Made by a program: the position numbers and the translations under genes
Shown: positions 36,837 through 50,556 of the stretch, piece by piece
Layout: the number at the start of each line of letters is the position of its first letter
How positions within the stretch are numbered: position 1 is the stretch's first letter
The notes under the pieces: generated by a model
What the model saw: the letters and a program-made list of their open reading frames with translations, nothing else
What the model was told of the DNA's origin: nothing
Databases searched by the model: none
Origin: Promethearchaeota archaeon
GTDB lineage: Archaea; Asgardarchaeota; Lokiarchaeia; Sigyniarchaeales; SOKP01
DNA: 52,605 nucleotides
Direction: 5' to 3'
Assembly (NCBI GenBank): GCA_016840085.1
Contig: JAEOTA010000008.1
Span: 1 to 52,605 of the forward strand

Positions 36837-37784
36837 ATGTTTTATAAATTATTAAAAATACAAATAAAAACCTTCATTTGTTCCATTCTAATGTTGAGTC
36901 AGAATAATTATAAAATAGGAATATTTTATGGGGTTGGTCCAGATACAGAGATGCTCGCGCAAAAATTTGCAGGCAATCTCATAAATAATGAAGAATTCTG
37001 TAAAGCTTGTGAAGATTTAGAACAAAATGTAAAATGTGATAAATGTAGGGAACATTTAAAGAGTTTTGCGAGCTCTATTTACTTTTACGAGAAAATTGGT
37101 GAAGATATTCCTGAGTTTGTTGAAGACTCAACGGAATATCTACCAAAAAATTTGCCACCTGTCGATTTTTTGTTGGTTGTAGGTATCCATCAAGATTTAC
37201 TTTTAGACCTTCCTAATTATCTCAAGGATAAAGGTATTAAAGCAGTTATAGTTCCAATTGAAGATCCTAAATGGGTGCCTTCAGGACTGCAATCAATGAT
37301 CTTAGAAGAATTCGAGAAATATGGCATCCAAGCAGCATTTCCTAAACCATTTTGTGCATTAAGTAAGGACTTAAATGAATATAATAATATTGGTTTTCAT
37401 CTCACTAAAGAACGTCATTATATTAATGAATTCATAGATTATTTCAAAATAGGCGTTCCAATTATCTCTTTATTACTAAGTAAAGACGGGGAATCAATTG
37501 AAGATAACTGCGTACTACAATCAGCCCCATGTGGGAGCAGTTATTATGTTTGCCAACAACTCAAATCAAAGTATTTCAAAAATGATAAAAATGGAGAATT
37601 ATCATTAAATGAAAGAATTAGTAAAGCTCATCATGCATATCCTTGTAATGCTTCAATGGATCAAGATAATATATTGAAAGATTCAATTCTTCATGTCGGA
37701 GGGTATTTGATTAGAAATGCAATTAGAAGAGAGTTAAACCTCGAAGAACAAGAAGGTCAAAAACTTGTATACGTAATAAAGTGA
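36837..37784 (+). CDS. DUF166-family protein
   Basis: HQDL, AVIVPIE, FPKPFCAL, SAPCGSSYYV, HHAYPCNASM..D..LH..G. Start may be 36891. Confidence 0.8.
   Translation: MFYKLLKIQIKTFICSILMLSQNNYKIGIFYGVGPDTEMLAQKFAGNLINNEEFCKACEDLEQNVKCDKCREHLKSFASSIYFYEKIGEDIPEFVEDSTEYLPKNLPPVDFLLVVGIHQDLLLDLPNYLKDKGIKAVIVPIEDPKWVPSGLQSMILEEFEKYGIQAAFPKPFCALSKDLNEYNNIGFHLTKERHYINEFIDYFKIGVPIISLLLSKDGESIEDNCVLQSAPCGSSYYVCQQLKSKYFKNDKNGELSLNERISKAHHAYPCNASMDQDNILKDSILHVGGYLIRNAIRRELNLEEQEGQKLVYVIK
37555..37784 (+). repeat. Direct repeat A, copy 1 (3' end of DUF166 gene)
   Basis: Aligns without gaps to 40021-40250 (offset 2,466). Confidence 0.95.
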
Positions 37785-40020: not shown

Positions 40021-40250
40021 AACAGTTAAAATCGAAATATTTCAAGAATGGTAAAAGTGGTGAACTTTCATTGAATGAAAGAATAAGTAAAGCACATCAT
40101 GCATATCCTTGTAATGCCCCAATGGATCAAGATAATATATTGAAAGATTCAATTCTTCATGTCGGGAGGTATTTGATTAGAAATGCAATTAGAAGAGAGT
40201 TAAATCTTGAAGAGGAAGAAGGAGAAAAACTAGTTTATGTTATTAAATGA
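40021..40250 (+). pseudogene. Direct repeat A, copy 2: orphan 3' end (75 codons plus stop) of DUF166 gene
   Basis: QLKSKYFKNGKSGELSLNERISKAHHAYPCNAPMDQDNILKDSILHVGRYLIRNAIRRELNLEEEEGEKLVYVIK*; the 5' part of the gene is missing. Confidence 0.93.
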
Positions 40251-40417
40251 TTTTTTGGTATAACTTATTATTTTAAATGCATATTTTTCCAGTTTTTTAT
40301 GAAAAACAGTCGATTAAAGATTTTTTAAACCTTAAACATTTTTTCACTATATAATTTTATTCAACTATAGTATCTTTAAATTTTAAAAAATTTATCATCA
40401 TTAGATAGGATGAAAAC

Positions 40418-42064
40418 GTGTCTAGTCATATTATTAATTCAGAAGAAATTAAAGAAAAGATTTCTTTAGATAAAATTCACTCCATTCAGGGTAAAAATAG
40501 AATTTTCACGGATTTTTCAACATACCTTATGGATGAAAGTAAACTAAATGGAGTTGCAGATTGGCTATTTTTTCCAAAATCTGAGGCAGAAATTGTTTCA
40601 ATATTAAAATTCTTACTAAAAAATAAAATCAGGACGTATATCAGTGCAGCTCGAACAGGAATTGTGGGTGCATGTGTCCCCTCTTCCGGCACTGTTTTAT
40701 CAACCGAGAAGATGAATAAAATTATTGGAATTGGTTTAGATAATAATAAAGGGAATTATTTCATTCGTGTTGAACCAGGAGTTACTCTGAACGAAATAAA
40801 TGATACCTTGAAAAAGAAGGAAATTGAAAATGTTGAAGAACTAACTCCCCGTGCTAAAAAAAAGTTTAAAGAGTCAAATAAAGAATTCCATTATCCTGTT
40901 GATCCAACAGAGATGTCTGCAACAATTGGTGGAACTGTAGCGACGAATGCCTCGGGGGCTAGAACCTTGAAGTATGGTCCTACAAGAGAATGGATTAAGG
41001 GATTAAGAGTTATTTTATCTTCCGGTGATATTTTAGATATTCAACGTGGAAAGTATTTTGCTTCAAATAAAGGTTATTTTGGTATAAGTAAATCGGATGG
41101 AAACAAATTGCAATTTAGGATTCCAAATTATATATTCAACACAATAGTGAAAAATGCTGCTGGAATTTATTCTAAACCGAATATGGATTTTATTGATTTA
41201 TTTATTGGAAGCGAAGGAATCTTAGGTGTCATTACACAGATTGATATTTGGATTATTGAAAAACACCCTTTAATATATAATATTTTATTCTTTAATTCTG
41301 AAGAAGAAGCAATAAGCTTTGGTGAATTTATCCGAAATAATAAGATTCTATCTCCGGAATTCATAGAATTTTTTTCAGGTGAAGCATTAGATCTTTTGAA
41401 AAAGGTTCAAAATGAAGATCCTAGTTCAATAGGTATGCCTCAAATTCCAATACATGCTAAATCAGCAATATTCTTTGATTTGCCATATTCTGAAGAAAAA
41501 ATAGATAAGGTTTTTAGTGAATTAAATAGTATAGCAGAAAAATATAAAATTAATTTATCAGATGGCTGGTCAGGCTATGAAAATCAAGATTTTGCTCGAT
41601 TTAAACATTTTAGACATGCATTACCTGAAAATATTAATGCAATAATTGCTCAACGCAAACAAGAATTTCCCCAACTACATAAATTAGGAACTGATATGAG
41701 TGTTCCTGAAAAATACTTTAGAGAAATGATGAAATATTATCATTCTGTTTTACAAAATGCAAATTTAAAATATCTTATTTTTGGTCATATAGGAGATAAT
41801 CACGTGCACGTTAATATTCTCCCAAAAAATATGCAAGAATTAAGATTAGGGGAAAAAATCTATGAAAAATTTGCAAAAAAAGCAGTAGAATACGGGGGAA
41901 GTATATCTGCAGAACATGGGATTGGAAAGATAAAGAGAGAATATTTAAAAATCATGTATAGTCAGAAAGAACTCGATGAAATGCGTCTAATTAAAAAAAC
42001 ACTCGATCCATCTTTAACTTTAAATTATGGTAATATTATTAGTTTTGACGCGGAGGAGGAATAG
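40418..42064 (+). CDS. FAD-linked oxidase/dehydrogenase (GlcD/D-lactate dehydrogenase family)
   Basis: VEPGV, YPVDP, ATIGGTVATNASG, GSEGILGVIT, GHIGDNHVHVN, SAEHGIGK. Confidence 0.92.
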   Translation: MSSHIINSEEIKEKISLDKIHSIQGKNRIFTDFSTYLMDESKLNGVADWLFFPKSEAEIVSILKFLLKNKIRTYISAARTGIVGACVPSSGTVLSTEKMNKIIGIGLDNNKGNYFIRVEPGVTLNEINDTLKKKEIENVEELTPRAKKKFKESNKEFHYPVDPTEMSATIGGTVATNASGARTLKYGPTREWIKGLRVILSSGDILDIQRGKYFASNKGYFGISKSDGNKLQFRIPNYIFNTIVKNAAGIYSKPNMDFIDLFIGSEGILGVITQIDIWIIEKHPLIYNILFFNSEEEAISFGEFIRNNKILSPEFIEFFSGEALDLLKKVQNEDPSSIGMPQIPIHAKSAIFFDLPYSEEKIDKVFSELNSIAEKYKINLSDGWSGYENQDFARFKHFRHALPENINAIIAQRKQEFPQLHKLGTDMSVPEKYFREMMKYYHSVLQNANLKYLIFGHIGDNHVHVNILPKNMQELRLGEKIYEKFAKKAVEYGGSISAEHGIGKIKREYLKIMYSQKELDEMRLIKKTLDPSLTLNYGNIISFDAEEE

Positions 42065-42209
42065 AAAAATCATTGAATTTGACAAAAAATCTATATAAAA
42101 TAAAAAATTTTTAGAAATCTCCTTAATAGATATCATTCTTAAAGCATTGATTTTATAGTACATAAATGTTATGTTCTAATGTGAGGAAATATATCTTTCA
42201 TTTAGGTGA

Positions 42210-44369
42210 TTGGTAATTACTATTATAGAATGTTCAACATCTTTTTGTGAAGAAAATGAGGAGGAATCAGAGGAAGAATCTTTTTTTGAAGAGAATTTTT
42301 GGTATTTCTTAATTCCTGCTGGAATTTTGCTTGGAATTTCAATCTTTTTAGAAATTGTATTTGAAGAAGTTTTAATATCTCAAATATTAGCTTTCTCTTC
42401 AATTTTCCTTTCTGGTTCAGGTGTTGTAAAAGAAGCAATCGAAGATATTAGAGATAAGAAAATTACTGCAAATCTATTAATGATGATTGCTGCGATAGCC
42501 TCATTTTTCATTTTACATGGACAAGAAGGAGCAACAGCTTTATTTTTATATGCAATAGCAGAGAGATTAGAAGAGATAACCAGTGATAAATCAAGGAATG
42601 CAATAAAAGAATTGCTTGAATTAGCTCCTGATTATGCTTTACTTAAATCTGAAAATAAATATAAAAATGTTCCATCACAAGAAGTTAAAATTGGAGATAT
42701 AGTTGGGATAAAGCCAGGGATGAAAGTTCCATTAGATGGAAAAATAGTAAAGGGTAGTTCATACTTTGATGAAAGTGCAATAACAGGCGAATCTGTTCCA
42801 GTATTTAAGAAAGAAGGTGAAGAGATATTTGCAGCAAGTTTAAATACAGATAGTTTTGTTGATATCGAAGTAGTAAGAGAAAGTTCGAATACAATTGTAG
42901 CTCAAATCGCTCAGAGTGTGAAAATTGCTCAACAAAATAAAAGTGAACATGAAAAATTTATTGAAAAATTTGCTAAATACTATACTCCAATAATTCTTAT
43001 CTCATCTATTTTAGTAATGGTTATCCCTCCTCTGTTTGGATTAGACTTTTATAATTGGTTCTATCGTGGATTAATCTTATTAGTAGTTTCTTGTCCTTGC
43101 GCTCTCACATTATCTACACCCTTAGCAAATATTGCTTCTTTAACTAAGCAAGCTAAAGAGGGGATACTTGTTAAAGGAAATAAATTTATAGAAAAATTAC
43201 AAGATATTGAAGTTTTTGCATTTGATAAGACCGGAACACTTACTGAAGGTAAACTAAAAGTTTTTGATATATATGCATATAATGGCGCAATTAAGTCAGA
43301 GATAATAAGCATAGCCGCTAGTTTAGAGGCTCTTTCAGAACATCCTATTGGAAAGGCAATAGTCAAACAAGCAAAAGAGATGGATTTACCTTTTCATAGT
43401 GTTGATAATTTTGAAATAGTAAAAGGGAGAGGAATAAAAGGAAAAATTGATAATGAAATGTTTTATGTTGGTAGTCAAAAATTCTTTGAAAATTTGAATT
43501 ATGAAATTCCAATTCATGACATTATTAAGGTTGAAAATTTAGGAACTATTCCAATTTTATTAGGAAATGAGAATCAACTATTAGGAATTATTACGATTAG
43601 AGATGTATTAAGAGTTACAGCCCCTGTCTTAATAAATGGTTTAAAAAAAAGAGGTTATGAAACTGTGTTAATATCTGGTGATAATCAGAAAATATGTGAT
43701 TCAATAGGGGCATGTTTAGATATAGATCATGCTTATGGTGAACATTTGCCTGACCAAAAACTACAAGAAATCCAAGAATTAAAACATCAATACAAAGGAG
43801 TCGCAATGGTCGGAGATGGAATCAATGATGCCCCTGCTTTAGCTCTTTCTGATTTAGGAATCGCAATTGGAGCTTCAGCTACAGATATTACGTTGGAAAC
43901 CGCAGATATCATCATTATTGGAGATGATTTAAACAAGTTACTTACTTATGTTGACATTGCTAAAAAAACAAATAAAAAAATAAAACAGAATATCTGGACC
44001 TCTATTATAGTAAAGATTTCATTTGCTATTCTAACGGTTCTTGGCTTCATGACCCTCTGGCTTGCGGTGGGAATCGGAGACATGGGGGTCTCAATCCTTG
44101 TCCTCTTTAATAGTCTGGCAATCTTTAGATATAAATTCCTATACAAGGAACTCTCGAATGAACAATTAGAAAGTGAAGCAAAATTGATTATTTGTCAGAA
44201 TTGTGAAACTAAAGACATTATACCGCAACATCATGGACGAGATATGGTTAAGAAAGGAGATAAATTAGTTTGTTGGAAGAACATCCTTAGCAGTGAAGAA
44301 TTGGAGACCTGCGATGAGGAACTCCCGCTTCACTGTCCCTATTGTCAAGAAAAATTAGAATTAAAATAA
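42210..44369 (+). CDS. P1B-type heavy-metal ATPase (Zn/Cd/Pb, ZntA/CadA-like)
   Basis: TGES, SCPCAL, FDKTGTLT, SEHP, GDGINDAP; Lys in the penultimate TM and DMG in the last TM (P1B-2 pattern). Confidence 0.92.
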   Translation: MVITIIECSTSFCEENEEESEEESFFEENFWYFLIPAGILLGISIFLEIVFEEVLISQILAFSSIFLSGSGVVKEAIEDIRDKKITANLLMMIAAIASFFILHGQEGATALFLYAIAERLEEITSDKSRNAIKELLELAPDYALLKSENKYKNVPSQEVKIGDIVGIKPGMKVPLDGKIVKGSSYFDESAITGESVPVFKKEGEEIFAASLNTDSFVDIEVVRESSNTIVAQIAQSVKIAQQNKSEHEKFIEKFAKYYTPIILISSILVMVIPPLFGLDFYNWFYRGLILLVVSCPCALTLSTPLANIASLTKQAKEGILVKGNKFIEKLQDIEVFAFDKTGTLTEGKLKVFDIYAYNGAIKSEIISIAASLEALSEHPIGKAIVKQAKEMDLPFHSVDNFEIVKGRGIKGKIDNEMFYVGSQKFFENLNYEIPIHDIIKVENLGTIPILLGNENQLLGIITIRDVLRVTAPVLINGLKKRGYETVLISGDNQKICDSIGACLDIDHAYGEHLPDQKLQEIQELKHQYKGVAMVGDGINDAPALALSDLGIAIGASATDITLETADIIIIGDDLNKLLTYVDIAKKTNKKIKQNIWTSIIVKISFAILTVLGFMTLWLAVGIGDMGVSILVLFNSLAIFRYKFLYKELSNEQLESEAKLIICQNCETKDIIPQHHGRDMVKKGDKLVCWKNILSSEELETCDEELPLHCPYCQEKLELK

Positions 44370-44623
44370 AATTTACATCTCACTGTCAATTTCGATAATA
44401 TATATAAAATCTTAAAAGATTTTATACAAAGAGTAATCCATTTATTTCTATATATCGTAATATATATTTTTTAAGGATTTCAATTTCAGCTCTTTTTGTT
44501 ATTTTAGTTTTTAGATTTAATTTAATTTTATAGGATACTTATAAATAAATAAGAAATTAATAAAAAAATAAAAAGCAAATAAAAAAATAGAAAATAAAAC
44601 ATTTTACAAGAGGAAACAAAAAA

Positions 44624-46159
44624 ATGGAGACAATTAGAGAACCAGCAAGAAATATTCCCGTCCGTGATAAAGTAGATGTGATAGTTGTTGGAGGAGGGCC
44701 AGCAGGAATAGGAGCAGCTTTAGCTTCTGCTCGGATTGGTGCTAAAACTGTTCTAATAGAACGTTTTGGTGCCCTGGGTGGCCAACAAACACAGGGTTTA
44801 AATTCAGTTTTCTCGCGCGTTGATCCAGAATTACATAATGGAATTGTGCAAGAAATACTCCAGCGCCTTATGAATGGTGGTGCTATGAGAAAACCGGATG
44901 AAAGACGAATGCGTCAGAATCCTATGAGAACACACTTTATTGCTCGCTATGGTGAAGAACACATACCAAAACGACTACTTAACACGAATGTAGGATGGTG
45001 GGGAGGAGAAAAGATCTTTGACCTCGAATATTATAAATATCTCCTCGATACCATGATGCAAGAAGCTGGAGTTAGGATGTATCTTCATTCATTTGCTGCT
45101 AGTACGATAAGAGATGGAAATACACTTAAGGGGATCATTACGGAGGGAAAAGAAGGCAGGCGTGCAATTCTAGGTAAAGCTATAATTGATACTACTGGTG
45201 ATGGGGATATTGCATGGAAATGCGGAGCACCAGTAATGGATGACACAATACCTTTAGGTCGACGTAAGGGTCGTCATATGGGATCATTAACAGCGTTCTA
45301 CCTTGGTGGTGTAGATCTTGGAAAATGGTTGGAATACAGGAAAGCTCATATGGATGAATGGGGTCAAATGTATGGGGGGCATAGAATGGTTAGAGAAGCT
45401 CGAAAGAAAGGGGCATACATCAGAGGAGACAGTATCATCCTCTCTCCGTTGCATAGTGTTCATGGTGGTGGAAGGATATGGGTGATGAATCCAATGTATG
45501 GTCCAAGAGAAGATAATCATTTATGGATGGCTGAAGAGCAAACTAACCTTGAAGTAAGCCTTAGGAAACAGGCTTTTGCTGTTCAGAATGTATTAAAACA
45601 GCAAATCCCAGGCTTTGAAAAATGTTTTGTTGAAAAAACCGCTAATTACCCAGTAACAACTATGCACAGAATTATAGGAGATCATGTTTTAACAGTAGCT
45701 GAAATGCGTGAGGGTAAAACTTTTGAGGATTCAATTGCTATAAATAACCAACCTCCGGATATCTGGGAAGTTGCAGGCAGGTTTGGTTATGAGATTCTAC
45801 CTCATGACATTCCTTATCGTTGCATAGTATCAAAAGAAGTGGATAATCTTCTAGCAGCTGGCACAACAATTTCATGCGGCCTTTTCACCAATGGTGGCTT
45901 GAGATATTGCACTCCGAGTATGTGTAACGGCCAAGCAGCAGGCACAGCGGCTGCTTTAGCTGCTAAAAATAATATAAGCCCTAAAGATCTAGATGTAAAC
46001 TTGTTGAGAGATACTCTTCGTGAACAAAGTGCGCATGTTAGCGTTAATGATGTACCAGAAGAAGCCATCGAGCCTTATAAGTTCATGAAAAAGATATCAA
46101 AAGTAAATAAGAAGAATTCAGAGGTCAACATAGATGAAGAAGAAATAGGCAAATATTAA
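44624..46159 (+). CDS. FAD-dependent oxidoreductase
   Basis: DVIVVGGGPAG, IDTTGDGD, IPYRCIV..NLLAAG, GQAAGTAAALA. Confidence 0.9.
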   Translation: METIREPARNIPVRDKVDVIVVGGGPAGIGAALASARIGAKTVLIERFGALGGQQTQGLNSVFSRVDPELHNGIVQEILQRLMNGGAMRKPDERRMRQNPMRTHFIARYGEEHIPKRLLNTNVGWWGGEKIFDLEYYKYLLDTMMQEAGVRMYLHSFAASTIRDGNTLKGIITEGKEGRRAILGKAIIDTTGDGDIAWKCGAPVMDDTIPLGRRKGRHMGSLTAFYLGGVDLGKWLEYRKAHMDEWGQMYGGHRMVREARKKGAYIRGDSIILSPLHSVHGGGRIWVMNPMYGPREDNHLWMAEEQTNLEVSLRKQAFAVQNVLKQQIPGFEKCFVEKTANYPVTTMHRIIGDHVLTVAEMREGKTFEDSIAINNQPPDIWEVAGRFGYEILPHDIPYRCIVSKEVDNLLAAGTTISCGLFTNGGLRYCTPSMCNGQAAGTAAALAAKNNISPKDLDVNLLRDTLREQSAHVSVNDVPEEAIEPYKFMKKISKVNKKNSEVNIDEEEIGKY

Positions 46160-46244
46160 ATAACTAAAACTACTACTGTCTAGAAAAATTAGACTTGATA
46201 TAATATTTTTGAAAATCAAATATTATCTATAATCTGTCATAAAA

Positions 46245-46718
46245 TTATAATTTTAAACTCATTACCAATTCATCACCTATTTCACTCCCAGTATAATCGA
46301 AACCAAATTTTTTATAAAATACTCCAGCATTTCCATCTAATTTAGAATGACTTAAAAGAAGTTCCTTTGCGTTTGGTCTACTTCTTACATGATTAATTAT
46401 TAATTTCATTGCTTTTTTTCCATAACCCTTTCCTTGATATTTGGCATCTATCATAAATCTCCAAAGAAAATATGATGGACGGTGATTTGGATTAGATTTA
46501 TACCTTAATAAGGAGTCACTTATCATAACAAAACCAATTGGCTTATTATCTGCATAGATCGCTCGGAACCAAGCATCTTTATTAAAATGAGCTTGTGCTA
46601 TTGATATAGCATTAGGAGCGACTAAATTTCTCTGCTCTGGTTTGACATCTAATTGTAGAATTGACATTAAATTAATTTTTGTAATCTTTTTTAAAGATAT
46701 TCTTAGAATTTCATTCAC
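46245..46718 (-). CDS. GNAT acetyltransferase (spermidine/spermine N-acetyltransferase-like)
   Basis: VAPNAISIAQA, LWRFMID..YQGKGYG, FYKKFGF. Confidence 0.9.
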   Translation of the reverse strand: MNEILRISLKKITKINLMSILQLDVKPEQRNLVAPNAISIAQAHFNKDAWFRAIYADNKPIGFVMISDSLLRYKSNPNHRPSYFLWRFMIDAKYQGKGYGKKAMKLIINHVRSRPNAKELLLSHSKLDGNAGVFYKKFGFDYTGSEIGDELVMSLKL

Positions 46719-46868
46719 CCGTTTAACTCTTTCAATTCTTTCAACTCTTTCAATTCTTTCAATTCTCTAAGATTATCAAATTTTTTATCTGATACGGCTC
46801 TTTGAATATATATTTTATCAAGCTCAATTACTTTTCCTAATAGTTCCAAAGCACTCGTGTGATTATTT
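46715..46868 (-). pseudogene. Direct repeat B, downstream copy: orphan 3' end of the TPR gene 48706-50556
   Basis: NNHTSALELLGKVIELDKIYIQRAVSDKKFDN vs NNHTSALELLGKVIELDKTYIQRALSDKKFDN; 46772-46868 aligns to 48748-48844 (offset 1,976). Confidence 0.92.
46722..46766. repeat. 9-bp tandem repeat x5 (TTCAAYTCT; encodes ELK repeats on minus strand)
   Basis: tttaactct ttcaattct ttcaactct ttcaattct ttcaattct. Confidence 0.85.
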
Positions 46869-46905
46869 ATCTCATTGATAATAGAAATCATATTCATCTT
46901 TTTTT

Positions 46906-48492
46906 CTATCCAAAGGTTAGATATTTAGCTGAGGTGATATGAGGTAGTCTTGAGAGTTGGGCGAGTACATCATCAGGTACAAAATTATCCACATTGATAA
47001 GCGATATAGCAATACCGCCTAGTTCTTTACGACCCAGCTGAAATCCTGCAATGTTAATATCTTTTTCGCCAAGAAATGTTCCCACTCGACCAACAACGCC
47101 AGGGACATCCTGATTTTCTAGCATTAACATTCCTCCTGACAATTCAGCCTCAATTGGAAAAAGATTGATTTTTATGATCTTTGAGATCTTCCCAAAAATG
47201 GTTCCCGATACTGATGTTTTACCTTTTTCAGTGATAGTAATTACACGAATTAAACTCATATAATTTTCTGCTTTCTTTGACTTTGTCTCTGTTATCTTTA
47301 TTCCCCGTTCCTCAGCTATCATACGCGCATTAACTAAGTTGACCTCTTCAGTCTGGTGTTGAAGAATTCCCTTTAAGACCGAGATAGTGAGTGGAGCAAT
47401 CGTAAGGTTTGAGGCATCACCTAGATACTCCACACGGAGTTCATTGAGTGGATTGTCGAGAAGTTGTCCATGAAATGATCCTAATTTTTCACAAAGAGAG
47501 AGGTAAGGTTGCAGTATTGGGAGTAATTCCGCTGCCACAGAAGGAAAGTTAATTGAATTGCGTATTATGCCTTTTTTAAGAAAATCACTAATTTGTTCTG
47601 CAATTAATACAGCAACCTTTTTTTGAGCTTCATTGGTAGAAGCACCCAGATGAGGAGTAAGAATTACATTAGGATGTTTATATAAAAAAGTATCTGAGGG
47701 GGGTGGTTCTACCGGGAAAACATCAAGTGCAACTCCTTTAACATGATCAGATTCAAGGGCATTTAATAGATCAGACTCATTAATCAATGCACCTCGTGCA
47801 CAATTTATAATATAAACCCCTTTTTTCATCAGTGCAATTGTTTCAGCATTTATCATACCCTTAGTCTCAGGTGTGAGAGGTGTATGATATGTAATGAAAT
47901 CAGATCGAGCATAAATTTCATCTAGGTTGACTGGTTCTACCCTTAATTTTAATAAATCTTCCTTGGAAACATACGGATCATATCCTAAAACAACCATTTT
48001 AAGACCTAAGGCACGATCAGCAACTATTTTTCCAATTCTTCCAATACCGATGATCCCCAGAACTTTATCAGTGAGTTCAGTTCCTACAAAATTTTTCTTC
48101 TCCCATTTCCCCTCCTTCATAGAAGCAGTAGCTTGGGGTACTTGACGTGCTAGAGCAAACATTAAAGCAATCGTGTGTTCTCCTGTAGTGATGGTATTAC
48201 CTCCTGGGGTGTTCATCACAACAACACCACTTTTTGTAGCAGATTTTATATCAATATTGTCTGTACCAGACCCAGCACGACCTATTACTTTCAAATGAGA
48301 AATTTTATTAAACATTTTGGCAGTTACTTTGGTAGCTCCTCGGAGAGCAATACCATCATAATGATCAATAATAGTAGCTAATTCTTCTGGAGTTAATTTC
48401 CCTTTAGCATCCACTTGAATTCCCTCTCGAGTGAATACCTCATCCCCCGCTTTATGAAGATTATCGAGAATAAGTATTTTTAAGTTTTCCAT
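46906..48492 (-). CDS. serA: D-3-phosphoglycerate dehydrogenase (long form with ACT domain)
   Basis: GRAGSGTDNID, NTPGGN, GIGRIG, INCARG, LDVF..EP, TPHLGAST.EAQ; C-terminal NQDVPGVVGRVG..NIA. Confidence 0.95.
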   Translation of the reverse strand: MENLKILILDNLHKAGDEVFTREGIQVDAKGKLTPEELATIIDHYDGIALRGATKVTAKMFNKISHLKVIGRAGSGTDNIDIKSATKSGVVVMNTPGGNTITTGEHTIALMFALARQVPQATASMKEGKWEKKNFVGTELTDKVLGIIGIGRIGKIVADRALGLKMVVLGYDPYVSKEDLLKLRVEPVNLDEIYARSDFITYHTPLTPETKGMINAETIALMKKGVYIINCARGALINESDLLNALESDHVKGVALDVFPVEPPPSDTFLYKHPNVILTPHLGASTNEAQKKVAVLIAEQISDFLKKGIIRNSINFPSVAAELLPILQPYLSLCEKLGSFHGQLLDNPLNELRVEYLGDASNLTIAPLTISVLKGILQHQTEEVNLVNARMIAEERGIKITETKSKKAENYMSLIRVITITEKGKTSVSGTIFGKISKIIKINLFPIEAELSGGMLMLENQDVPGVVGRVGTFLGEKDINIAGFQLGRKELGGIAISLINVDNFVPDDVLAQLSRLPHITSAKYLTFG

Positions 48493-48705
48493 TTCCTCTC
48501 CTTTTTTCTGTTTTAAATCCCAATTTAAATAAGTACTATTTATAATTTACTGTATATCTAAATCCTAATGATTGATAGAATAAAATTTGTTCATTTAAAT
48601 TTATTACTACAAGAAGGATTAGAAATCAATTTTTTAAGAATTATATAGGTGATTTAATTGCCTCTTTTGTAAAGAAGAACAGAGCTAAACTCAGTAGTTT
48701 AGATT

Positions 48706-50556
48706 TCATTTACTTATTAATTCTTTAAATTCTTTTAAGTCTTTTATATTATCAAATTTTTTATCTGATAATGCTCTTTGAATATAAGTTTTATCAAGTT
48801 CAATTACTTTTCCTAATAGTTCCAAAGCACTCGTGTGATTATTTTTTAGTGATTCAAGACAGGCAATATTATAAAATATTTCACTATTAGTAGGGTCAGC
48901 TTTCAGTGATTTATTAAGATAGTGTTCAGCTTTTTCCAAATTTTCTAAATTCATAAATAAGTTGCCAAGATTGTTCTGAACATCAGCAACATTGTATAAA
49001 TAGGTTGTAGGGTCCTGTTTTGCATATATTTTAAAGATTTTTAGTGCTCCAAGAAACATTTTCTCTGCCTCCTCAAATTTCTGTAATCTGAGGTAGACAT
49101 TTCCAAGACAATTGGTTATTATAGCAACATTATGCATATATATTTGTGGATTTTGTTCTGCTAATCGTTTGGAAATTTTTAATGCTTTCTGGTACCTCGG
49201 TTCTGCCTCCTCAAATTTGTTTATACTTGCATACAAGTCTCCAAGATCTAATAGAGTAAGGACTAACTCAGGTAAAACTTGATCGGGATATTTTTTAGCA
49301 ATATTTTTTTTAATTTTTAATGCTTCGAGATGCATCTTTTCAGCATCTTCAAATTTACTTAATTCGCTATATATCATTCCAAGATTACTCTGAGTCTTAG
49401 CGATATCAACTAAATACATGTCGTAACACATTTTTGCTAATTTTCTATAACTATCTAGAGAATCAAGGGATCCATCTTGAATATCTTCCAATAAGTCTAA
49501 ATCAATGCAGACGTTTCCCAAATCACTAGTGATTGAGGGCTCTTCAGGTAAGTATACATCGTAGTATTGTTTTAATACCTCGTTATACGTCTTTAAATCA
49601 TCAAGATATGACTTTTCTGGATCTTCATATTCTTTTAAATCAAAGTCAGGAGAATGCAGATCATAATATTGTTTCTTTAACTCTTTATAGGCATTCAAAG
49701 CATCAAGATAATTCTTTTCTGCATCTTCAAATCGCTTTAAGTCAATATATAGTGTTCCGAGGTTTTTTTGAGTCGCAGCTACATAGGGTAAATATATTCT
49801 ATAATATTGTTTAGCCAATTTTTTATATATGTTTAAAGCGTTAAGGTAAATCTTCTCTGCTTCCTCAGATCTGCCTATGGAAGAAAATAGATTTCCAAGT
49901 GCTATTAAAATTGGCGCTTTATATTTATCTTCAAGTACCATTAATGTTTCTGCAATATCAATTAATCTTTTATATCGATAATCAACTTGATCTATTTTAT
50001 TAACAACTATAAGAAATTCATTAACCAACTTCTCAGAAGGATTTAATTTTGAGTTATGAAAAAGAATCTCAATATCGTCAGAAAGATTATCTCCATATTT
50101 TTTTTTCTTTATCTCATAATATAATATTGCTTTTTCATGAGATTCTTCATCTGTTAAACTTTCTAAAAAATTTTGAATTTGTAAAGATATGAATTGGTAT
50201 ATTTCTTTTTTTTTCCTTTTTTTCTTATGTATTATACCAGTATTTACTATATCGTTGAAAATTTCCACAATATTTGGCAATATATAGCTGGTTTCAACAA
50301 TTTTCCTATCAATATTAGTTTCCACATCTGTATTTATCACAGATAATTTCTTAAGTAATTCTAATGCGTCTGAATTTGATGAGAAAATCTCCTCAATAAC
50401 TTTCTTATAAAGATTGTGTACTTCTGGTTCATCAAAAGGCTTTAATTTATCGAAATTTATACTTTGGTAATTTTTTCTAATTATTTTTATAATATCAGAA
50501 TATTCCTCAGGAATCTTTTTTATAAATTCTAATACTTTATTTGGTAGTCTTGGCAT
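48706..50556 (-). CDS. TPR protein (long kinesin-light-chain-like repeats) with N-terminal winged-helix-like region
   Basis: Repeated A.TQ.NLG.LY..L.RFE.AE..YL.AL units; final YNIACLESL TPR. Confidence 0.9.
   Translation of the reverse strand: MPRLPNKVLEFIKKIPEEYSDIIKIIRKNYQSINFDKLKPFDEPEVHNLYKKVIEEIFSSNSDALELLKKLSVINTDVETNIDRKIVETSYILPNIVEIFNDIVNTGIIHKKKRKKKEIYQFISLQIQNFLESLTDEESHEKAILYYEIKKKKYGDNLSDDIEILFHNSKLNPSEKLVNEFLIVVNKIDQVDYRYKRLIDIAETLMVLEDKYKAPILIALGNLFSSIGRSEEAEKIYLNALNIYKKLAKQYYRIYLPYVAATQKNLGTLYIDLKRFEDAEKNYLDALNAYKELKKQYYDLHSPDFDLKEYEDPEKSYLDDLKTYNEVLKQYYDVYLPEEPSITSDLGNVCIDLDLLEDIQDGSLDSLDSYRKLAKMCYDMYLVDIAKTQSNLGMIYSELSKFEDAEKMHLEALKIKKNIAKKYPDQVLPELVLTLLDLGDLYASINKFEEAEPRYQKALKISKRLAEQNPQIYMHNVAIITNCLGNVYLRLQKFEEAEKMFLGALKIFKIYAKQDPTTYLYNVADVQNNLGNLFMNLENLEKAEHYLNKSLKADPTNSEIFYNIACLESLKNNHTSALELLGKVIELDKTYIQRALSDKKFDNIKDLKEFKELISK
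48721..48844 (-). repeat. Direct repeat B, upstream copy (3' end of TPR gene)
   Basis: Matches 46745-46868; 5 mismatches over the 97-bp core by hand count. Confidence 0.92.

Follow-up and report, generated by a model that had tools for sequence, protein, structure and literature searches.

The window analysed here, 52,605 nt long, belongs to a marine-sediment Promethearchaeota (Asgard) genome assembly (4.68 Mb, 98.8% complete). On its minus strand, an intact gene for a 616-residue TPR protein (48706–50556), recognized from its open reading frame, Pfam TPR families and tail comparison, is followed by an intergenic region (48493–48705) and by serA, encoding a type-I D-3-phosphoglycerate dehydrogenase of 528 residues (46906–48492). 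Next come a 37-nt serA 3' flank (46869–46905), a 60-codon orphan ORF (46715–46897) and an intact gene for a 157-residue GNAT acetyltransferase (46245–46718), assigned by domain search and comparison with congeners. On the plus strand, a P-type ATPase gene (42210–44369), the right-hand resident of the locus as judged from domain searches and relatives, is followed by the gene for a 511-residue FAD-dependent oxidoreductase (44624–46159, domain search). The GC content of the window is 30.6%, compared with 37.8% for serA and 41.1% for the oxidoreductase gene.

The 3' end of the TPR gene is duplicated. Repeat search and tail comparison identified the upstream copy (48719–48844, minus strand) as the functional TPR tail; the second copy (46743–46868) is 90% identical over 126 nt at a spacing of 1976 nt, and together they bracket the spacer, serA and the 37 nt behind it. 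The match has a BLAST E value of 9e-45 within the 4.68-Mb genome, in which BLAST found no third copy. The initial annotation had placed the start of the second copy 37 bp past the serA stop and described 45 identical nucleotides, five mismatches and then diverging tails. These features were borne out: serA ends at 46906 and the repeat edge lies at 46868, with no mismatch in the first 45 nt, five in nt 1–96 and six in nt 97–122 (Fisher p = 0.012). The arrangement is that of a 3'-end displacement, with an intact gene, cargo and a same-strand orphan 3' copy that has a sharp 5' edge. This edge, where the serA flank meets the repeat, is an illegitimate junction, and the microhomology across it is A/T-rich and not significant. 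By eye, the 37-nt flank resembles the serA 3' flank of genomes G023, G044 and G053 and that of G049, a weak, AT-rich similarity.

The same junction was found in sequencing runs X5 and X6 (with SNPs at 46879 and 46884) and in an independent JGI metagenome contig, L224. The latter is 92.9% identical to the window over 3.4 kb and carries, in order, the serA 3' end, the orphan, GNAT, the FAD-oxidoreductase and the ATPase 3' end. By comparison of the two, the merged structure is older than the split of the window genome from L224.

From its reading frame, the repeat and the L224 comparison, the orphan ORF was resolved into an ATG, 10 spacer-encoded codons and the displaced TPR tail. Both its in-frame ATG at 46897, giving 60 residues, and the overlap of its TGA with the GNAT GTG start in GTGA (46715–46718) are as first annotated. 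The ORF includes tandem 9-nt (KEL) repeats (46722–46771, minus strand; repeat family D4). This stretch is 19 nt longer in the window genome than in L224 and run X5, and as a result the orphan stop has shifted from GTGAATGA (…KELTGE-stop) to GTGA (…KELNG-stop). Two types of TPR tail occur: the GNAT type ends in KEL(T/I)GE-stop with the GTG inside, and the serA type in ISK, VRK, IKK or TNK before the stop. In the window, the orphan carries the GNAT-type end and the TPR gene itself the serA-type end, its final ~9 codons (…KEFKELISK-stop) matching the type found in serA-bearing relatives. That the current TPR tail came with serA, as proposed, is clear only for its final ~26 nt and for the intergenic region; the first 96 nt of both tail copies are specific to this lineage.

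A stop–start overlap of 4–8 nt between TPR and GNAT is seen in most of the GNAT-type genomes listed, as well as in L224 (GTGAATGA) and the window (GTGA). This conserved overlap has the layout of a translationally coupled pair, for which coupling is predicted; archaea are known to use termination–reinitiation at stop/start pairs that overlap (PMC6728339). Between the window and L224, the orphan ORF shows eight nonsynonymous and two synonymous changes, as would be expected of a peptide evolving neutrally, without selection. GNAT differs at 7 of 474 nt and the orphan at 10 of 153 (p = 0.002), so that GNAT has evolved about four times more slowly than the adjacent orphan and appears to be still under constraint; its four nonsynonymous and three synonymous changes are too few for a dN/dS estimate. 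The suggestion that the orphan preserves coupling to GNAT is accordingly kept as a possibility: the ATG and open frame are conserved in L224, although the peptide behaves neutrally. The window GNAT shares 76–84% identity with its TPR-coupled counterparts in congeners and falls in a polytomy, near no sampled species (nearest path 0.18).

On the ATPase side, the final 10 codons of the ATPase gene, its stop and 5 nt (44339–44374) recur at 46173–46208 on the plus strand, with 30 of 36 positions identical. Neither 2981 random windows nor 2000 shuffles produced a score as high as that of this second scar. The oxidoreductase gene therefore also lies next to a displaced gene end, as cargo between the ATPase gene and the displaced ATPase tail, and these two genes show the same 3'-end displacement layout as TPR and serA. 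The orphan ATPase end sits just behind the GNAT stop, roughly like the real ATPase end in GNAT-type relatives, where the P-type ATPase gene converges on GNAT with ~19 nt between the stops. This mirror-image scar is an addition to what the initial annotation had described.

SerA matched TIGR01327 over residues 5–526 of 528 with 632.8 bits (cut-off 454). The domains PF00389, PF02826, PF19304 and PF01842 (2-Hacid_dh, PGDH_inter and ACT; substrate-binding, NAD-binding, intervening ASB and ACT) follow in this order, all above their cut-offs, and by these profile matches the protein is a true type-I phosphoglycerate dehydrogenase. The phylogeny, proposed earlier as a check between a bacterial and an archaeal clade, placed SerA among bacterial sequences, as sister to Deferrimicrobiaceae with 71–75% identity. 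The long SerA homologs found elsewhere in the same order, in other genera and families, share only 37–40% identity with it. The tree thus shows serA to be of bacterial (Deferrimicrobia-like) origin. It is plausible that the insertion supplies the first step of serine biosynthesis, as the initial annotation stated, in view of the TIGR01327 match and of a ThrH-type phosphoserine phosphatase in the genome (280.8 bits, cut-off 133); broad aminotransferases are also present. Nevertheless, a canonical SerC was not found (no serC_1 or serC_2 match in the 98.8% complete genome), and no SerB scored above cut-off in the genome.

By alignment, all 12 serA-bearing congeners share a homologous TPR–serA intergenic region, which gave no match to any Rfam family. 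Within it, a block of ~55 nt (approximately 48563–48616) that contains the TATA-like AATAAATTTAAATG is nearly invariant in serA-bearing congeners and is a probable serA promoter or operator. The purine-rich, SD-like leader noted previously (AAGGAGAGGAAATG) is present, with GGAGAGG at 48496–48502 before serA.

The alleles at this locus were surveyed in 54 genomes of the same Promethearchaeota genus. TPR–GNAT with overlapping stop and start is found in 12 congeners, a 13th retains a truncated GNAT there, and several metagenome contigs show the overlap as well. The TPR–GNAT pair of the initial annotation is thus a widespread, putatively coupled pair of the genus, the GNAT-type end of which is kept by the orphan. 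TPR–serA without GNAT occurs in 11 congeners. Among the 54 genomes, only the window genome holds serA and GNAT together, as does L224. Relatives that lack the repeat show either TPR–serA or TPR–GNAT at the same locus and never TPR–serA–GNAT, an order that would have spoken against an insertion. In the sister clade, all eight species have TPR–serA, three of them in the order ATPase–oxidoreductase–serA; the oxidoreductase gene directly adjoins serA in G004, G018 and G049. The closest relative, the sister species G024, has a TPR gene with a GNAT-type tail, but its contigs break at both edges of the locus. The TPR body of the window genome is 86% identical to that of the sister species.

Homology-anchored recombination, which placed foreign cargo in the 3' ends of the TPR and ATPase genes without an integrase, is the probable explanation of this structure. 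The native locus of the genus would be TPR–GNAT, with overlapping stop and start and coupled translation, converging on the P-type ATPase gene. In the lineage of the window genome, both outer genes would have received a foreign insert of higher GC content at the 3' end: the bacterial serA with its own conserved upstream region, which entered the last 45 codons of TPR, and the FAD-oxidoreductase gene, which entered the ATPase gene within its final 10 codons. Each insert would have brought a replacement gene end, the original ends being left as orphans that flank GNAT. We infer that the host's own recombination was responsible: one side of each insert would have paired with homologous sequence in the target gene and the other would have been joined illegitimately, much as in homology-facilitated illegitimate recombination or insertion-duplication, and no integrase would have taken part. 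The 11 congeners with TPR–serA would subsequently have lost, or never possessed, the GNAT core. GNAT would probably be expressed from the serA promoter by read-through, with termination–reinitiation via the orphan ORF as a possible further route.

In support of insertion, both scars and the repeat are real, the intergenic region is homologous across serA-type genomes, and serA and the oxidoreductase gene are GC-richer than the window. Moreover, cargo imported with part of a target gene has a homologous anchor, here the TPR body, as needed for one-sided recombination; a bare GNAT core fragment has none. Against it, both polarities predict an identical junction sequence. The insertion of serA into TPR–GNAT, as first proposed, thus fits the junctions, as does entry of a GNAT core into a TPR–serA allele. 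The divergence of serA and the oxidoreductase gene from clade relatives (77–86% nucleotide identity) is close to that of rpoB (84–85%), as would fit a serA-type allele that has been resident for long. If the insertion is old, gene conversion has to be assumed, because the tail copies differ less from each other (5/96 nt) than each does from the sister species' tail (9–11/96), and one suggestive site is the only sign of such conversion.

The opposite polarity is possible but doubtful. The serA-type allele, TPR–serA facing oxidoreductase–ATPase, would have been inherited by descent, and a ~700-bp piece of the alternative allele, comprising TPR tail, GNAT and ATPase tail and donated by a very close relative, would later have entered the 23–31-nt serA–oxidoreductase spacer, for example during double-strand-break repair. 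The uniform TPR–serA allele of the sister clade, with its three ATPase–oxidoreductase–serA orders, the vertical-looking divergence of both cargo genes and the GNAT-type tail of G024 agree with this history. A near-conspecific donor would give just the 5/96 difference between orphan and resident tail, and a GNAT-centered fragment would bring exactly these two ragged gene ends. Both halves of the spacer are also similar to one and the same part of the G049 spacer, a weak resemblance that could reflect a target duplication of ~15–19 nt but is not significant. However, capture requires two illegitimate joins with no homologous anchor, and a GNAT-type allele in a close relative, yet the window GNAT lies near no sampled species. 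The timing of the insertion could also be earlier, and this has an appreciable chance, if somewhat short of even: the merged structure would date to the ancestor of a 10-species clade, the TPR–serA alleles deriving from it by deletion of the GNAT core. Gene conversion would have held the first ~96 nt of the repeats alike, and G024 would have lost serA by inter-repeat recombination. Such a history is the most parsimonious on the rpoB tree, suits the vertical appearance of serA, oxidoreductase and GNAT and agrees with a structure that predates the L224 split. The G024 TPR tail is the exact hybrid predicted from repeat-by-repeat excision, and at one site the window orphan equals its own TPR tail while the L224 orphan equals G024. 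Conversion rests on that one site, however, the G024 locus is unassembled, and the serA tree groups the window genome with the G004 group, a placement as sister to all others being marginally rejected by the AU test (p = 0.039).

Site-specific integration is very improbable. The serA unit would then be a decayed or satellite integrative element with its integrase encoded elsewhere, targeting the TPR 3' end through the 45-nt stretch as att core and carrying a replacement end, like e14 and phage 21 in E. coli icd. Perfect identity at the 5' edge of the repeat, declining 3'-ward, is indeed the pattern of a core plus substitute gene end. Nevertheless, the 1,976-bp unit holds serA alone and no recombinase, and no integrase or transposase was found among 30 cargo proteins tested at 16 similar loci; on these grounds an e14/icd-type element with a recombinase gene in or beside it was rejected, though a recombinase might act from elsewhere in the genome. 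In addition, every locus repeats a different sequence, few have their longest identical run at the 5' edge, and the cassette is fixed at one place in 11 species. More improbable still is an artefact or episome, in which two strain variants were joined or serA lies on a 1,976-bp circle sharing the 45-nt core with a TPR–GNAT chromosome. In favor of it, the identical core collapses at k = 31, so that the four arms cannot be put in order from the Logan contigs of the source sample, and the sister-genome contigs break here. Against this, the core forms a separate Logan piece at depth 33.5, with about 17–19 for its neighbors, the serA flank–repeat junction has a depth of 19 compared with 17–18 in flanking DNA and was seen in two other studies, an X5 contig spans the TPR body and tail into the serA intergenic region, and L224, independently assembled, holds serA, orphan and GNAT on one contig. 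The junctions are thus covered by Logan contigs of three studies in addition to L224, contrary to the misassembly that the initial annotation had named as a refutation.

The locus resembles the C-terminal displacement described for rhs, CDI and Vibrio T6SS loci, where an intact gene with a new end is followed by new cargo, an orphan 3' fragment with a homology block and the old partner, with alternative alleles in relatives and no integrase; homology-facilitated illegitimate recombination was proposed there (PMC5361080, which cites Jackson et al. 2009 for displacement in rhs). In contrast to those systems, the host here is an archaeon, the cargo is metabolic and of bacterial origin with no toxin or immunity genes, the displaced partner is tied by predicted translational coupling rather than immunity, and scars flank one retained gene on both sides. 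A polymorphic toxin/immunity locus was rejected, the genes being TPR, SerA, GNAT and FAD-oxidoreductase and only the layout being alike. The scar type is already known from bacterial toxin loci, and the locus matters for its host, its cargo and its complete allelic series.

Homology-facilitated illegitimate recombination occurs in transformable bacteria and in E. coli conjugation (PMC3240628; PMC5361080, which cites de Vries and Wackernagel 2002 and Prudhomme et al. 2002). The process suggested here would share with it one anchor, the TPR or ATPase body, one sharp illegitimate end and foreign DNA added beside the anchor; in classical cases recipient DNA is usually lost, but at this locus the recipient gene end is kept. 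Insertion-duplication, a Campbell-type single crossover of a circular fragment with a gene 3' end, likewise leaves the homology block directly repeated on either side of the insert and the gene intact if the fragment includes the stop codon, and its predicted hybrid repeats match the locus. A circular intermediate would be required, however, as would a near-identical donor tail, and no circle was observed. Elements e14 and phage 21 in E. coli icd carry a substitute 3' end and leave the original as a pseudo-3' end, with identity highest at the crossover edge; they encode an integrase and use one att site. The substitute end, displaced original end and edge peak of identity are shared by the window locus, which differs in the sequence repeated from locus to locus and in the lack of an integrase in the serA unit or like-locus cargo.

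The genomes of Asgard archaea are large and contain many bacterial genes, the physical incorporation of which is hardly documented. Desulfobacterota are frequent partners of Lokiarchaeia in bacteria-to-Asgard transfer, as counted from gene trees (PMC13247210). Like those transfers, serA is a metabolic gene in a Deferrimicrobia/Desulfobacterota-type clade with a patchy distribution among Asgard genomes; unlike gene-tree counts, the locus adds a physical insertion scar and later within-genus spread. Here the insertion scar of a bacterial-type metabolic gene is still intact, the 54 sampled congeners include both unmerged alternatives and a mirror scar lies beyond GNAT, which makes integrase-free gene-end recombination testable. 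The locus is also a natural setting in which to test whether translation of a downstream gene can be sustained by an orphan reading frame. The same layout was found at about 17 loci of the window genome. Tentatively, these scars might be the footprint of a general integrase-free route of gene addition in Asgard archaea, by which host recombination splices cargo, including bacterial genes, into resident 3' ends, cassettes pass between species as alternative alleles, and displaced tails retain an open frame wherever the old partner still relies on them for its translation.

On the minus strand, the TPR gene (50556-48706) is followed, after a spacer of 213 nt, by serA (48492-46906). Then come 37 nt and a displaced copy of the TPR-gene tail, held by an orphan ORF of 60 codons (46897-46715) that overlaps the GNAT gene (46718-46245). 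Two plus-strand genes are directed at GNAT: a P-type ATPase gene (42210-44369) and a FAD-oxidoreductase gene (44624-46159). The two tail copies form a direct repeat of 126 nt (46743-46868 and 48719-48844) with 90% identity and a spacing of 1976, and serA is the sole gene of this 1,976-bp unit. Nucleotides 1-45 of the copies are identical; mismatches number 5 in 96 and then 6 in 26 (p = 0.012). Searched against the 4.68-Mb genome, the orphan had no match besides itself and the TPR tail (E = 9e-45). The observation made at this locus in the initial annotation was confirmed, including the GTGA overlap, the ATG at 46897 and the purine-rich leader of serA, all present as described there.

Logan contigs of four runs from three studies, all of marine sediment metagenomes, were mapped over 45900-49200. 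Those of the source study break solely at the identical 45-nt core, which forms a separate piece with a depth of 33.5, compared with about 17-19 in its neighbours, matching the expectation for two copies. The order of the arms around this core is not readable from the source-run contigs, and uncovered parts there weigh neither way. Depth is normal where the serA flank meets the repeat, and this junction was found again in two unrelated studies, there with SNPs at positions 46879 and 46884; one contig of run X5 spans the TPR body, tail and spacer (48559-48963). In addition, L224, an independent JGI metagenome contig of 3,384 nt, aligns collinearly to 47308-43899 (92.9% identity) and carries the serA 3' end, orphan, GNAT, oxidoreductase and ATPase 3' end. 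The merged serA–orphan–GNAT structure is not an assembly error. A loose end at 48716 in run X3 represents a co-occurring variant, with a …TGE* tail leading into other sequence.

The genus was sampled as 54 species genomes. Long serA was found in 12 of these, in every one immediately after the TPR gene, and a GNAT orthologue (76-84% identity) in 12 others, where the TPR stop overlaps the GNAT start or lies within a few nucleotides of it. In these GNAT-type genomes a converging ATPase gene often directly adjoins GNAT; a thirteenth genome, G046, has a truncated, stop-interrupted GNAT at the same place. Only the present genome combines serA and GNAT at the locus. TPR tails of the GNAT type end in …KEL[T/I]GE* with the GTG inside, and those of the serA type in …ISK*, VRK*, IKK* or TNK*. 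The TPR gene of the window has a serA-type end and the orphan a GNAT-type end, the latter plainer in the L224 orphan (…KELTGE*). The TPR gene of one congener, G018 (locus L027), contains an in-frame stop eight codons ahead of the usual end (…DLK*FKELISK*). The closest relative, G024, has a TPR gene with a GNAT-type tail, and no serA, GNAT or oxidoreductase was found in its bin. As a guide to gene order G024 was uninformative, since its contigs C43 and C22 end at the edges of the locus, the former at the stop of the TPR gene and the latter within the ATPase gene.

A second scar was found on the other side of GNAT. Positions 46173-46208 duplicate the ATPase gene's last 10 codons, its stop and the following 5 nt (44339-44374), the copies agreeing at 30 of 36 nt; no random window (0 of 2,981) and no shuffle (0 of 2,000) scored as high. 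Each side of GNAT is therefore bordered by the displaced end of one of its two native neighbours, and outside these ends lie serA on one side and the oxidoreductase on the other. The initial interpretation, in which serA was inserted into an ancestral TPR-GNAT operon and brought the current TPR tail with it, was largely right but incomplete.

The same arrangement might also arise by capture of the GNAT core into a TPR-serA allele. Entry of the cargo into TPR-GNAT-ATPase is tentatively preferred because a homologous anchor is offered by that reading only. The GNAT tree, an unresolved polytomy, gave no decision. The idea that the left repeat copy preserves a remnant of the GNAT start and initial codons, which would prove a true target duplication, was rejected; local alignment of the TPR-serA intergenic region with the GNAT 5' end gave a score reached by 530 of 2000 shuffles, which is not significant. 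A target duplication of about 15-19 nt around the GNAT core was not relied on, the alignments being gapped and AT-rich.

An rpoB nucleotide tree paired this genome with G024, and eight serA-type species form the sister group of the pair. Another three species of the serA type are nested among GNAT-type species, and the cassette has therefore moved within the genus. The divergence of serA and the oxidoreductase from their clade relatives (77-86% nt identity) is about equal to that of rpoB and, together with the GNAT polytomy, would fit serA-type genes that have long been resident. The two tail copies differ from each other at 5 of 96 nt and each from the G024 tail at 9-11 of 96; their closeness would fit a recent event or gene conversion. 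The merged structure is older than the split from L224. The conflict between serA and rpoB trees, considered as a sign of transfer into this lineage, concerned the root position only (AU p = 0.039) and was too weak.

Relative to L224, 7 of 474 nt differ in GNAT and 10 of 153 in the orphan (p = 0.002), 8 of the latter 10 altering the peptide. By these counts GNAT is under constraint and the orphan peptide is not. The orphan ATG and open frame are kept in both lineages, and a 19-nt duplication in this genome merely shifts the orphan stop (GTGAATGA to GTGA). Termination–reinitiation coupling is known in archaea (PMC6728339).

Comparison of the genome with itself identified 49 nearby direct-repeat pairs, of which about 17 are arranged like the serA locus, with the end of a long gene, cargo and an orphan end, versus about 4 of opposite kinds. 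These loci lie on contigs C5, C6, C19, C35, C40 (two), C41, C46, C56, C61, C69, C73, C82 (three), C83 and C85. Each holds 1-6 cargo genes, and the orphan copies (60-424 nt, 78-95% identity) have a sharp 5' edge. Accessory in kind, the cargo includes PIN toxins, FMN reductases, an ABC-2 exporter, Ogg, TIR, Ras-like GTPase, LRR and DUF4238 proteins; a scan of 30 cargo proteins found no integrase or transposase. For the scar locus on C46, the search for an empty site in relatives gave weak, paralogue-level matches only. Within the window, the 3' end of a DUF166 gene is repeated at 37555-37784 and 40021-40250 (230 nt, 87% identical), bracketing an ABC-2 exporter pair. The empty site is seen in four congeners (G049, G018, G064 and G059), in which DUF166 is directly followed by a 548-aa gene, and G024 has the alternative one, DUF166-ABC-ATPase. 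Over 40021-42300 the identity to G049 is about 92%, compared with about 80% for the adjoining ATPase gene, a step that marks a recombination edge. The layout of the serA locus equals that of C-terminal displacement at rhs, CDI and T6SS loci, where the mechanism put forward is homology-facilitated illegitimate recombination (PMC5361080; PMC3240628). The serA locus is clearly an archaeal version of this already known type of scar.

The product of serA, a type-I phosphoglycerate dehydrogenase, matches TIGR01327 with 632.8 bits (cut-off 454) and, along its full length, shares 71-75% identity with enzymes from Deferrimicrobiaceae and related "Deltaproteobacteria" MAGs (GC 62-64%). In a tree of 54 SerA sequences, 12 from the genus and 2 from other Promethearchaeota formed one clade (support 94), sister to Deferrimicrobiaceae and nested among Deferrimicrobia, Syntrophales and Nitrospirota. 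Within the same order, the long SerA homologues found outside the genus, in other genera and families, reach only 37-40% identity. The GC content is 37.8% for serA, 41.1% for the oxidoreductase and 30.6% for the window. This affinity and composition are consistent with Desulfobacterota being, as reported, transfer partners of Lokiarchaeia (PMC13247210). Origin of serA and the oxidoreductase as one bacterial fragment was ruled out, no such neighbour being present at four bacterial serA loci checked. Two other Promethearchaeota MAGs (loci L074 and L075) carry the same bacterial-type serA (71% identity), next to which neither TPR nor any other gene of the window was detected; because such neighbours are lacking, serA may have entered the phylum ahead of its arrival at this locus. 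The serA of G002 (L010/L029) occupies 586 aligned columns versus 527 residues, an insertion of roughly 59 residues.

The spacer 5' of serA is homologous across all serA-type genomes. A block of about 55 nt (approximately 48563-48616, minus strand), 71-124 nt upstream of serA, hardly varies among 12 species with coding-DNA differences of 14-23%, and contains a TATA-like AATAAATTTAAATG. No Rfam match to a riboswitch or structured RNA was obtained 5' of serA, this block included, and a consensus-fold search of the upstream region, in an alignment that included three wrongly oriented loci, found nothing.

Regarding the remainder of the serine pathway, canonical SerC was not found in the genome, and a ThrH-type phosphatase is present. 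A 563-aa ORF on C83 (L005:1303-2994) joins a 2-hydroxyacid dehydrogenase to a class-II aldolase domain of fuculose-phosphate type, its dehydrogenase part being PGDH/glyoxylate-reductase-like with scores below the cut-offs. The ThrH-type protein, encoded on C75 (L190:1402-2013), matches bifunctional phosphoserine phosphatase/homoserine phosphotransferase with 280.8 bits (cut-off 133) and is the genome's one clear candidate for a phosphoserine phosphatase.
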